A stretch of 26,276 nucleotides of DNA. Origin: a candidate division WOR-3 bacterium. Its GTDB lineage: Bacteria > Hydrothermota > Tepidihabitantia > Tepidihabitantales > CAIPLT01. Shown here one piece after another: positions 21,187-26,276 of this stretch. The position numbers and the translations under genes were made by a program. Every line of letters starts with the position of its first letter. Position 1 is the stretch's first letter. The notes below the pieces were generated by a model that did not search any database, was not told the DNA's origin, and saw only the letters and a program-made list of their open reading frames with translations. The DNA lies in the NCBI GenBank assembly GCA_965649215.1, contig CBFGJZ010000023.1, positions 1 to 26,276 of the forward strand, in the 5' to 3' direction.

Positions 21187-21215
21187 TTGACATAAGTGAA
21201 AATTACGCTTATTAT
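21187..21215 (+). promoter_or_regulatory. Putative sigma70 promoter for the 3D-domain gene
   Basis: TTGACA 21187-21192, 17 bp, TATTAT 21210-21215. Confidence 0.6.
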
Positions 21216-21223
21216 ATGTTATA

Positions 21224-21910
21224 ATGCTTATTTTAAGGTTAAAAGACCGCATAATGCGGTTTTTTGTATTTTTAATGGTTTTGGGATTGTCTTGTATCTA
21301 TCGTCCCGTTATTAAAGACGACCCAAACCGACCCGAGACCCGACTTTTACATATTGATATCAATAAATCAGAACAACCTGAACGCCTAAATTACAAATAC
21401 CTTGGCAAATTCAAAGTCACTTTTTATTGGATTGTGGAAGAAAAAGACTACAGCGGTCCTAAAACCACCCCTTTATTTTTGGAAAATGGCAAATTACTCG
21501 GCTATTTTCCATCAAAATTCGTATCCGATTTCCGTAAAGAATCCTGTGCTGAACTCAAAGATGGCCGTCGGATCAGTTATCTTAAGAAAAAGAATAAAGT
21601 AAGGATCGTTTCAGACTTTCTTGGTTATGGCGGATATACGTTAAAACCATTTATCTCAGTTGCGACAGACCCCAAAATCATTCCGACCGGGTCAAAATTA
21701 TACATCCCTGAGATGACCAAGATTGACCGGGTTATCTTAATTGGCTTAAACGACAAATATGAACCAGGTATTGTCTATGCCCATGATATTGGCAGTATGG
21801 TCTGTGACCATCATATCGATTTTTTTGTCGGTTACAAACGAAATATCAAACTATTTAATGATGCTGGAATTGAAAGTTCGGGTGTTGTCGATGTCTATCT
21901 TATTGAATAG
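21224..21910 (+). CDS. 3D (Asp-Asp-Asp, MltA-like) domain protein, probable lipoprotein
   Basis: VATDPKIIPTGSKLYI...AHDIGS.V...HIDFFVG. Hydrophobic stretch ending in lipobox-like LGLSC. True start may be 21254. Confidence 0.8.
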   Translation: MLILRLKDRIMRFFVFLMVLGLSCIYRPVIKDDPNRPETRLLHIDINKSEQPERLNYKYLGKFKVTFYWIVEEKDYSGPKTTPLFLENGKLLGYFPSKFVSDFRKESCAELKDGRRISYLKKKNKVRIVSDFLGYGGYTLKPFISVATDPKIIPTGSKLYIPEMTKIDRVILIGLNDKYEPGIVYAHDIGSMVCDHHIDFFVGYKRNIKLFNDAGIESSGVVDVYLIE

Positions 21911-24994: not shown

Positions 24995-25759
24995 CTATTC
25001 GTTACCAACCGATGCTGAAAGTCGTTCCATTATATCTTCTGAAATATCAAAGTTAGCGAAAACTTTCTGGACATCTTCATGTGATTCTAATGCTTCATAC
25101 ATTTTAAGCACTCGCTCTGCAGTTTTCTCATCCAAAGTAACGGTGTTTTGAGGAATTTGTGTTAACTCGCTATGGCTAATCGTAATCTTTTCTGCTTCAA
25201 ATTGCTTTTTGATCTTTTCATAATTTTCTGGTGGCGTGATCACTTGATAAGAATCTGCATCAGTTTTAACATCATCCGCTCCTCCGTCCAAAGCAATCGC
25301 AAAGATTTTATCTTCGTCATTGCCACTCCGTGGAATAATAATGATACCTTTGGGTGAAAATTGCCAAGCGACACAACCTGCTGCGCCTAAATTTCCACCA
25401 TATTTAGAAAATATATGACGCATCTCAGCGGTAGTTCGATTCTTATTATCCGTAAGCGCTTTCACAATCATTGCCACACCGCCTGGTCCATAACCTTCAT
25501 AATCAACTTCTTCGTAACTTACTCCTGGTAGTTCACCGGTTCCTTTTTTAATTGCCCGTTCAATATTATCTGCAGGCATATTCACTGCTTTAGCCGATTC
25601 TATTGCAGTCCGTAAACGTGGATTAGCGGCGGGATCTCCACCACCAATTTTAGCGGCGGTCGTAATTTCACGAATCAATTTTGAAAATATTTTGCCTCGT
25701 TCAATATCAGCTTTACTCTTTTTATGTTTAATAGTTGCCCATTTCGAATGTCCTGACAT
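24995..25759 (-). CDS. yebC: YebC/PmpR family protein
   Basis: MSGHSKWATIKHKK, NPRLR, YEGYGPGG, TDNKNRT. AAGGAG RBS. Conserved yebC-ruvCAB order. Confidence 0.96.
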   Translation of the reverse strand: MSGHSKWATIKHKKSKADIERGKIFSKLIREITTAAKIGGGDPAANPRLRTAIESAKAVNMPADNIERAIKKGTGELPGVSYEEVDYEGYGPGGVAMIVKALTDNKNRTTAEMRHIFSKYGGNLGAAGCVAWQFSPKGIIIIPRSGNDEDKIFAIALDGGADDVKTDADSYQVITPPENYEKIKKQFEAEKITISHSELTQIPQNTVTLDEKTAERVLKMYEALESHEDVQKVFANFDISEDIMERLSASVGNE

Positions 25760-25798
25760 AAAATTATCTCCTTAAAGAAAAGTAAATAATCTAATAAT

Positions 25799-25826
25799 AG
25801 TTTATAACTATTTAGTTAAATGTCAA
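25799..25826 (-). promoter_or_regulatory. Putative promoter for yebC-ruvCAB
   Basis: TTGACA (25826-25821), 16 bp, TAAACT (25804-25799). Confidence 0.55.
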
Positions 25827-26003
25827 GAAAAAAGTAAGTAAAAGTAACAATCATAAATATAAATCAATAAAGAACACATCGCTAACATTAAAAATTATCT
25901 TATAAAAACATAATCTGACATTTCAATCATACCCCAAAAAGATTTCATTAATTCAGGGAAAAAAATCTGAAACAATAATTATATTATAAAACTAAATTAA
26001 CTA

Positions 26004-26031
26004 TTGACAATCTGCTGATTTATTATAAACT
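26004..26031 (+). promoter_or_regulatory. Putative promoter for the small Lys-rich ORF
   Basis: TTGACA 26004-26009, 16 bp, TAAACT 26026-26031. AT-rich UP-like region upstream. Confidence 0.6.
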
Positions 26032-26057
26032 AAAATTGTTAGAAGATAGGAGGCACT

Positions 26058-26117
26058 ATGCCGTGTATGAAAAAAGCAAAACCCAAGGCGAAGAAAAAGG
26101 TCGCCAAGAAAAAGTAG
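26058..26117 (+). CDS. 19-aa lysine-rich small protein MPCMKKAKPKAKKKVAKKK (not in the ORF track)
   Basis: AGGAGG at 26048-26053, ATG 26058 (alternative ATG 26067), tandem stops TAG TAA, promoter upstream and terminator immediately downstream. Confidence 0.75.
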   Translation: MPCMKKAKPKAKKKVAKKK

Positions 26118-26124
26118 TAAACTA

Positions 26125-26156
26125 AAAGGGGGCTTTAAGCCCCCTTTGTTTTTTTT
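26125..26156 (+). terminator. Rho-independent terminator
   Basis: aaagggggct-tta-agcccccttt stem followed by g and eight T. Confidence 0.9.
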
Positions 26157-26162
26157 ACCCAC

Positions 26163-26276
26163 ATGGACTTTCTATATCAAAGATTTCTTAAGTTAAGACC
26201 CACACAACAATTAATCCAAACCATTGAAAATTATCTAAGACACAATCAACCAAAACCACTGCTTGCAACAATCAAT
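26163..26276 (+). CDS. Possible 5' end of a CDS running off the window (MDFLYQRFLKLRPTQQLIQTIENYL...)
   Basis: ATG at 26163 with 38 open codons to the window end. No clear RBS or motif. Confidence 0.35.
   Translation, partial: MDFLYQRFLKLRPTQQLIQTIENYLRHNQPKPLLATIN

Follow-up and report, generated by a model that had tools for sequence, protein, structure and literature searches.

A lysine-rich ORF of 19 codons lies near the end of the window analysed here, which is the whole of a 26,276-bp contig (C23) from a MAG (G000) of 1.64 Mb in 39 contigs with 35% GC. The ORF is framed by what look like a promoter, a ribosome binding site (RBS) and a terminator, and it stops just short of the start of mfd, raising the questions of whether so short a frame is translated at all, what its product might do, and what its position before mfd might mean. 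A sequence-only reading had taken the span 26004-26156 for a self-contained mini-gene. The promoter, RBS, ORF, double stop TAGTAA and terminator that it named were all confirmed, and the boundaries of the span proved to be exact (Table 1).

Table 1. Features of the micro-gene and its surroundings in the window, with the bS22 gene of the same genome.
Feature	Position	Strand	Basis or remark
-35 hexamer TTGACA	26004..26009	+	read directly and by scan
-10 hexamer TAAACT, 16-nt spacer from the -35	26026..26031	+	read directly and by scan
Shine-Dalgarno (SD) AGGAGG, 4-nt spacer to the ATG	26048..26053	+	read directly
Micro-gene, 19 codons plus TAG, product MPCMKKAKPKAKKKVAKKK	26058..26117	+	ORF; homologues of 17-86 aa in relatives
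TAG stop of the micro-gene	26115..26117	+	read directly
Second in-frame stop TAA	26118..26120	+	read directly; absent as a conserved feature in relatives
Terminator-like hairpin AAAGGGGGC-TTTAA-GCCCCCTTT, then G, T8	26125..26156	+	scan and folding; interpreted as an internal attenuator
mfd (transcription-repair coupling factor) start, 38 codons to the contig end	26163..26276	+	N-terminus matches relatives' mfd
Canonical bS22 of G000, starts MPCGRKRK	C5:31120-31206		custom profile; after an HU/IHF-like gene, before a tRNA

Expression signals and coding signature

The two promoter hexamers of the micro-gene agree with the consensus at 10 of 12 positions. Downstream of them, the AGGAGG is a motif that precedes only 4.7% of the 969 ORFs of at least 200 aa in G000, which makes the RBS of the micro-gene exceptional in this genome. 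Any SD-like 4-mer was found upstream of 28% of the same 969 ORFs, and the missing SD before mfd is ordinary for G000. The hairpin that follows the ORF has the GC-rich stem and U-run of an intrinsic terminator: its arms and loop (26125-26147) form 10 pairs, 6 of them G-C, around a loop of 3, and the T8 lies at 26149-26156. Its G-C pair count is the highest among the 27 terminator-like sites of the window, and in this sense the earlier description of it as the strongest terminator there is true. Judged by these sequence signals, few genes of G000 have an expression cassette as strong as that of the micro-gene. No tRNA genes were found in the window.

Direct reading of MPCMKKAKPKAKKKVAKKK bore out the composition first reported for it, with Lys at 10 of 19 positions, no acidic residues and a single Cys (Cys3). 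Comparison with 56 related loci indicated that this peptide belongs to a family in which the frame itself is kept. Each of the 56 tabulated loci has an ATG linked to an SD, and the frame that this ATG opens, of 17-86 aa, ends ahead of the hairpin; a check for loci that retain the hairpin but have lost the ATG or the frame returned 0 cases among the 56. Across 57 equal-length pairs of sequences, which are related and hence non-independent, differences at codon positions 1, 2 and 3 numbered 149, 150 and 410, respectively. Cys3 is present in 50 of the 56 sequences, encoded by TGT in 22 and TGC in 28, while position 2 is occupied by Pro, through 3 different codons, or by Ala, through 4, seven in all. 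The conserved N-terminus is thus M-[AP]-C, with MAC and not MPC as the start in most of the family; past it, both sequence and length are loosely constrained among members.

Pooled over the 56 sequences, the residues comprise K 49%, A 17%, T 9%, V 5%, P 5%, C 4% and R 4%; the entire set has 4 acidic residues and not one that is aromatic. Lysine richness is kept in genomes of 58-69% GC by way of AAG, and AAG makes up 5 of the 10 Lys codons of the window ORF, compared with 19.2% genome-wide in a genome of 35% GC. This preference would fit a translated message in which slippery A-runs are avoided. As judged from the pattern of sequence change, the ORF at 26058-26117 is a genuine conserved protein-coding gene, and the view that it is a real mini-gene beneath gene-calling cut-offs was upheld by the coding signature together with the conservation of its signals in relatives. 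Peptides of 17-31 residues fall under gene-calling limits, and because the micro-protein is of this size, has no Asp or Glu and would be shredded by trypsin, it is missed by standard annotation and proteomics.

These observations bear directly on two other explanations of the locus. In the first, the ORF would be a chance occurrence within a non-coding small RNA or a mere terminator-bearing leader. An Rfam search of 25500-26276 with E values up to 10 did return weak, sub-threshold matches driven by the hairpin, the best scoring 28.7 bits where gathering requires 56, but nothing reached gathering level. The SD-ATG phasing, the maintenance of a frame over 17-86 codons, the excess of third-position changes and the conservation of amino acids across loci of 26-69% GC make a non-coding element very improbable. 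In the second explanation, the product would be a secreted or membrane-active cationic peptide, similar to an antimicrobial. Its small size and highly positive charge would suit such a role, but it has no hydrophobic or aromatic residues from which to build an amphipathic face (0 aromatic in 56 sequences) and it carries no signal peptide, nor do genes for export, immunity or maturation adjoin it at the loci whose neighbours were determined; we consider this explanation scarcely credible.

Distribution of the unit in the order

The unit was found in 56 of the 66 genomes of the order, representing all five families, and in 56 of the 61 genomes with an assessable mfd 5′ region, at loci ranging from 26 to 69% GC; these and the other counts across relatives are non-independent through kinship. 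The gene mfd was located in 63 of the 66 genomes, with no match in G022, G047 and G051, and its 5′ region is cut by contig ends in G006 and G063. No unit was found in the fetched mfd 5′ stretch of G021 and G065. In three further genomes (G057, G059 and G062), the ORF and hairpin have been deleted, leaving mfd preceded by the same promoter and what remains of the SD, indicating that the micro-gene is dispensable in at least these three genomes. Outside the order, 40 mfd 5′ regions were sampled; the unit is present in 2 of them, which belong to sister families within the class, and was not found in the other 38, of which 4 were shorter than 450 nt.

Several kinds of search contributed to this picture. 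A DNA search of 40 relatives recovered the unit within the same family, on contigs different from the yebC contig, and eight genomes of the family showed the promoter, an AGGAGGC, a Lys-rich ORF that begins MPC and spans 19-24 codons, and the GC hairpin, between outer flanks that are unrelated. Searching the 66 genomes of the order for an SD-plus-MPC pattern yielded 71 matches, spread over 44 genomes, versus 21 matches for a reversed control, and the translated matches disclosed further members in GC-rich genera (e.g., MPCMKRGVKKAAKKTAKKKTKK). Of 272 genomes examined from the phylum, 16 matched a stricter codon-level ORF pattern, every one of them from two families of the order, with 0 matches for the reversed control, and in an exact-pattern contig scan 4 of the 18 stretches matched were true family members. 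The family profile, which misses many AT-rich members, produced a single match per genome in 35 of the 36 genomes that it matched, and within that sensitivity it revealed no convincing copy of the micro-gene away from mfd. The exceptions in the profile search were a degenerate second copy in G054 and a match in G045 that is not on the mfd contig of that genome. One weak family-profile match (E 0.098) was also seen in family f7.

The peptides differ from family to family in length and, beyond the N-terminus, in sequence. Members in family f1 begin MPC.. and have 19-24 aa; those of f3 (MACMKRGKAAAKKKTATKKKK) have 21-25 aa, those of f4 (MACMKRSAKKPAKKSPKKK) 19 aa, and those of f5 (MACAKKTTKKKTTKKKKE), whose GC content is 26-31%, 17-21 aa. 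Most genera of f2 encode peptides of 17-31 aa that begin MACMKRGVKKTAKKTAKK.., and the same family includes longer forms of 45 aa and 66 aa in genera g19 and g22, respectively (one genome each), as well as Cys-less repeats of 37-86 aa (MVAKKKPAKK..) in genus g21.

The surrounding signals are conserved as well. A -35 element of the form TTGAC[ACT], followed after 16-19 nt by TAnnnT, is present at 54 of the 56 loci, and the distance from TAnnnT to the ATG is 20-30 nt at most of them (16 nt at one locus and 45 nt at another). It is on this conservation that the promoter call rests, because promoter-like hexamer pairs in the AT-rich window occur at chance level (55 versus 53.4 expected, and 57 versus 48.8, in comparisons with shuffled sequence). 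From the same spacing, the 5′ UTR would be only about 13-23 nt. AGGAGG occurs at 53 of the 56 loci, and the spacer between it and the ATG is 4 nt at 49. The hairpin is more stable than shuffled sequence, with a z of -2 or lower at 51 of 56 loci, and since the tops of its stems comprise 16 different sequences among these 56 loci, it is the structure that is maintained and not its sequence. The U-runs are weaker in the GC-rich genomes of f2. The gap between the stop codon and the hairpin is 4-24 nt in the 54 loci with a called hairpin; it is 4-11 nt in f1, f3, f4 and f5 and 13-24 nt at most f2 loci. Taken as a whole, the distribution indicates that a Lys-rich micro-gene has been kept throughout the history of this order-level clade.

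Linkage to mfd and the role of the hairpin

At all 18 loci found without reference to their neighbours, the micro-gene is followed on its own strand by an mfd-like gene, and the N-termini of these downstream genes follow M-E/H-x-L-x-x-R-F. Pfam searches with five of the downstream genes identified UvrB_inter and CarD_TRCF_RID in 5 of 5, a combination that marks a protein as the transcription-repair coupling factor Mfd. In the window, the N-terminus of mfd reads MDFLYQRFLKL... and the remainder of the gene is on contig C3. This mfd has no SD and no space for a promoter of its own, as its start codon is 6 nt past the end of the terminator. The description of the micro-gene as self-contained therefore had to be abandoned: it always immediately precedes mfd and shares its strand. 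Its supposed divergent arrangement with yebC-ruvCAB fared better only in part. Those genes do adjoin it in this genome, but the arrangement is not kept, with the upstream neighbour being yebC here and an acetate-kinase-family gene (ack/buk-like), accD, secA or mazG in relatives. The adjacency of yebC is incidental and particular to G000.

The distance between the hairpin and mfd varies among loci. At 30 of the 56, the window included, mfd starts 1-11 nt after the hairpin, and since these compact loci leave no room for another promoter, mfd would have to be transcribed from the micro-gene promoter through the hairpin. At 18 loci (f1, g26, g21 and others), 49-189 nt separate the two. The order of elements suggested by the sequences is promoter, micro-gene, attenuator hairpin and mfd, with the micro-gene as the first cistron.

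A plausible mechanism can be built on this order. The strong sigma-70-type promoter, very short leader and near-perfect RBS would be expected to produce much peptide. The hairpin would stop most transcripts, so that the peptide would have a plentiful mRNA of ~115 nt, and the fraction that reads through would carry mfd, the product of which cells require in small amounts. Among the listed sequencing runs, none recorded as RNA was found to contain the stretch, and one metatranscriptome run of the same study contributed no match; the DNA contigs that match it come from runs labelled hot springs metagenome, which may include the source sample. The peptide is charge-dense, acid-free and aromatic-free, and to judge from this composition it probably acts in trans on a polyanion, with DNA as the first candidate and RNA, ribosomes or polyphosphate as alternatives. 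That the translated micro-gene is a promoter-proximal cistron for an abundant, trans-acting polycation of this kind, with mfd expressed by read-through, is the interpretation that we favour, with our confidence in it evenly balanced. The arrangement brings to mind the rpsU-dnaG-rpoD operon of E. coli, where the first gene is small and highly expressed and an internal terminator follows it. In both, the promoter is strong, the first product would be small and abundant, and a terminator then throttles the gene for a low-abundance enzyme, although here the layout is deduced from sequence and the first gene is a micro-gene of no assigned role.

The main rival to the polycation interpretation is a cis-acting leader peptide, that is, a uORF attenuator in which the progress of the ribosome over the Lys codons or at the stop codon would set termination at the hairpin and tune mfd. 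Attenuators of transcription that work through leader peptides are typified by trpL and hisL, and the unit resembles them in that a short ORF enriched in one codon family follows a promoter and precedes a terminator hairpin, directly beyond which a gene begins. The ORF always lies between mfd and its sole evident promoter, with the terminator-like hairpin intervening, and the tight placement of mfd at the 30 compact loci is equally expected of a leader acting in cis. A hairpin 4-11 nt after the stop, as in f1, f3, f4 and f5, would be reachable by a terminating ribosome, and the joint loss of ORF and hairpin in three genomes is also in keeping with a leader, as is the freedom with which members vary in length and, past the N-terminus, in sequence.

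Other observations argue against the leader. In the fold of 26038-26170, the one locus folded at full length, the hairpin is kept in the MFE and centroid structures and its arms are left without a competitor helix; no competing antiterminator was seen, of the kind that trpL and hisL possess as an alternative structure. At most f2 loci the 13-24 nt from stop to hairpin lie beyond the ribosome footprint. Nothing obvious ties Lys codons to mfd, which has no known connection to lysine supply. Moreover, in contrast to trpL and hisL, the N-terminus is conserved at the level of amino acids, Cys3 included, and the ORF reaches 86 codons; the H1-like repeat expansions of 54-86 aa better suit a polycation that acts in trans. 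The micro-gene is also kept at the 18 loci with 49-189 nt between hairpin and mfd, and AAG is favoured over slippery AAA runs. On balance, a leader peptide is possible but, in our estimation, rather unlikely. The window fold also showed codons 2-3 of the micro-gene pairing with the mfd start, a pairing that is unmatched by the MAC-type starts of most relatives and was taken as chance.

Comparison with small ribosomal proteins and H1-type polycations

Two groups of known proteins offer themselves for comparison with the product of the micro-gene. The first consists of tiny ribosomal or ribosome-associated proteins of the bS22, eL41 or bTHX kind; a ribosomal link had been put forward by the sequence-only reading and was assessed here against bS22. 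In two other families, the SD-plus-MPC pattern picked up a 29-aa protein (MPCGRKRKL..) that matches solved bS22 chains (8fmw_V, E 4.4e-5; 7jil_5, E 0.008) and, among Pfam and NCBIfam models, weakly matches COX24_C (PF08213; E 0.25). Because a six-frame search of the order with PF08213 was too insensitive and missed true bS22 genes, a custom profile of the 29-aa protein was used in its place, and it located canonical bS22 in 62 of the 66 genomes of the order at E<=1, 59 of them at E<=2.4e-11. The micro-gene is not bS22, since the canonical bS22 gene sits elsewhere in G000 (Table 1). The possibility that the micro-gene is a diverged bS22 orthologue of families f1 and f2 was ruled out in the same way, canonical bS22 being present separately.

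What remains of the ribosomal explanation is a protein of the same general kind, perhaps a bS22 paralogue. Part of one report (PMC10618245) describes the bS22 of Borrelia as unannotated and highly basic, with 61% Lys+Arg, and places bS22 in a pocket of 16S rRNA formed by h2, h27, h44 and h45. Like bS22 (8fmw_V, 7jil_5), eL41 and bTHX, the micro-protein is small, charged and missed by annotation; its very strong expression signals would also befit such a protein, and in the window it shares an MPC start with the bS22 of its own lineage (MPCGRKRK in G000). The family as a whole, however, starts mostly with MAC, and an hhalign comparison of the micro-protein family with the bS22 of the order gave a probability of 3.7%, with only the first 4 residues aligned. 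No PDB sequence matched a 24-aa relative of the micro-protein with E values up to 10, whereas the bS22 of the order matches 8fmw_V. Unlike bS22, which is an Arg/His-rich helix of fixed length, the micro-protein is rich in Lys, Ala, Thr and Pro with a variable number of repeats and is encoded by a separate gene, and that gene has been lost in three genomes. A ribosomal role accordingly did not hold up well, and we regard it as improbable.

The second group comprises histone-H1-like proteins, which the composition of the family recalls in its Lys/Ala/Pro-type low-complexity repeats without acidic residues. In Pfam and NCBIfam searches with the relatives, no member reached any family threshold, and relatives of 21-24 aa were without a match. 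The 86-aa member scored 19.6 bits with HC2 (PF07382) against a cut-off of 40, and 21.9 bits with NF038053 against 80; the 66-aa member likewise gave a sub-threshold match to histone-H1-like models. A search for proteins homologous to the 45-aa member yielded 5086 word candidates, none at E<=0.01. As no family threshold was reached, the resemblance to H1 is compositional. The micro-protein has a histone-H1-tail-like composition, as first proposed, and membership in those families is not implied.

Within these bounds the likeness is considerable. Hc2 (PF07382, NF038052), the Burkholderia-type H1-like proteins (NF038053) and the KPAA C-terminal domains of AlgP and PhaF all combine Lys with Ala, Pro, Thr and Val, as the micro-protein does, and the H1-like repeat proteins share with it a KKxA/KKTA/PAKK tetrapeptide-like periodicity and a repeat number that varies among relatives. 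In published accounts, size variation is described for chlamydial Hc2 (PMC2848022) and links to DNA and polyphosphate for the repeats of AlgP (PMC9239181); the literature on H1-like and Lys-repeat proteins includes Hc2, the PAKKA repeats of Ku, the lysine repeats of TopA, PhaF and DdbA. The micro-protein differs from the H1-like proteins in being 5 to 20 times shorter (17-31 aa mostly) and lacking a folded domain, in its conserved M-[AP]-C, and in always being encoded directly before mfd; it is also known from sequence alone. A simple polycation role leaves the near-invariant Cys3 unexplained.

One further parallel joins an H1-like polycation to the gene that follows the micro-gene. According to part of one report (PMC2919716), myxobacterial CarD has an N-terminal domain of the CarD_TRCF family, related to the RNA-polymerase-interacting domain of Mfd, fused to an HMGA-like tail, and the basic tail of Anaeromyxobacter CarD is histone-H1-like. 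An RNA-polymerase-binding module of the TRCF-RID type is thus associated with an H1-like polycation in both cases, although in CarD they form one chain and here they are encoded by adjacent cistrons. CarD is a transcription factor, whereas Mfd is a translocase, and no fusion was seen here; we treat the parallel as a lead only. It would be conceivable, if unlikely, that the micro-protein is a dedicated, trans-acting, H1-like DNA-binding partner of Mfd or RNA polymerase, a split counterpart of CarD, for which the hairpin would keep the ratio of peptide to Mfd high and Cys3 would serve as a functional handle.

In the literature searched, which does yield the known H1-like proteins, we found no description of a Lys-rich micro-gene before mfd, nor of mfd being expressed behind an abundant small product or tuned by translation of a uORF. 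Should the micro-protein prove to be a polycation of the nucleoid, of RNA or of polyphosphate, it would add a minimal member to the chromatin proteins of bacteria. The layout of micro-gene, hairpin and mfd also provides a clean, testable model, either for a rarely needed enzyme encoded behind an abundant small product or for the tuning of a transcription-repair factor by uORF translation.

SD use and the arms of the hairpin

The micro-gene, which encodes a 19-aa Lys-rich peptide behind an AGGAGG SD, lies in a genome (G000) with low SD use. Among 969 ORFs of at least 200 aa, with the first ATG taken as the start, 72% had no GGAG, GAGG, or AGGA upstream, a figure inflated by start-codon misassignment, and AGGAGG preceded 4.7%. 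The terminator-like hairpin downstream of the micro-gene, as well as the hairpins at related loci, had a purine/G-rich, SD-like 5′ arm in every case (AAAGGGGGC, AGGAGGGC, AAGGAGGGG) and a CCUCC-like 3′ arm that is a near-complement of the micro-gene's own SD region. Such an arm pattern may simply reflect the strand bias that terminators usually show, or may go beyond it.

Promoter-like sites in the window

The palindrome ATTGACAAT, located between the micro-gene and the divergent yebC gene, contains the −35 element of the micro-gene promoter. Read on the minus strand, it supplies the −35 of a promoter-like site (11/12) that has a perfect TATAAT and is directed at yebC, and a further minus-strand site was found ~40 nt upstream of the yebC start. 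Together with the micro-gene promoter, these sites may constitute back-to-back promoters, or they may reflect chance in AT-rich DNA. Elsewhere in the window, a sequence scan showed a promoter-like site followed by a terminator-like hairpin and an ATG (Table); transcription of this segment may yield a very small RNA, or the segment may serve as a short leader or attenuator.

Table. Locations of features in the window and on contigs C3 and C5 of the same genome.
Feature	Location	Strand	Remarks
Segment with promoter-like TTGACA-17-TATTAT	window 21187-21280		11/12
Terminator-like hairpin (T-run follows)	window 21240-21266		~25 nt downstream of TTGACA-17-TATTAT
ATG after this hairpin	window ~21276		
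Promoter-like site upstream of yebC	window 25826-25799	−	
Segment with palindrome ATTGACAAT	window 25983-26010		
Hairpin downstream of micro-gene	window 26125-26147		
mfd, codons 1-38	window 26163-26276		contig end
mfd, residues ~342 onwards	C3:15-332		contig start
bS22 gene	C5:31120-31212		outside window
Small basic ORF, 40 aa	C5:53112-53234		outside window; AGGAGG site present

A bS22 gene and a small basic ORF on contig C5

A canonical bS22 gene (beginning MPCGRKRKLRKIKRH) was found without an SD, 7 nt downstream of an HU/IHF-like gene and followed by a tRNA. The canonical protein was present in 62 of the 66 genomes of the order. The length of this gene is at the limit of gene callers. The second small basic ORF (beginning MARSKSKHKIKQHK) was kept in 11/66 genomes (E ≤ 0.01); it gave a single chance-level match in Pfam (E 0.057, under the cut-off) and no match in PDB.

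The broken mfd gene and micro-gene copies in relatives

The mfd gene downstream of the micro-gene is broken by the assembly of G000, in which the piece between codon 38 and residue ~342 was not found. In relatives of the same order, the micro-gene was duplicated at two loci, L197 (G041:C327) and L114 (G054:C49). The former carries two tandem copies upstream of mfd, the second of which is without the MAC start. At the latter, the extra copy lies 1.2 kb upstream behind the same promoter and SD, loses the Lys-rich register after 10 codons, and is likely a pseudogene.
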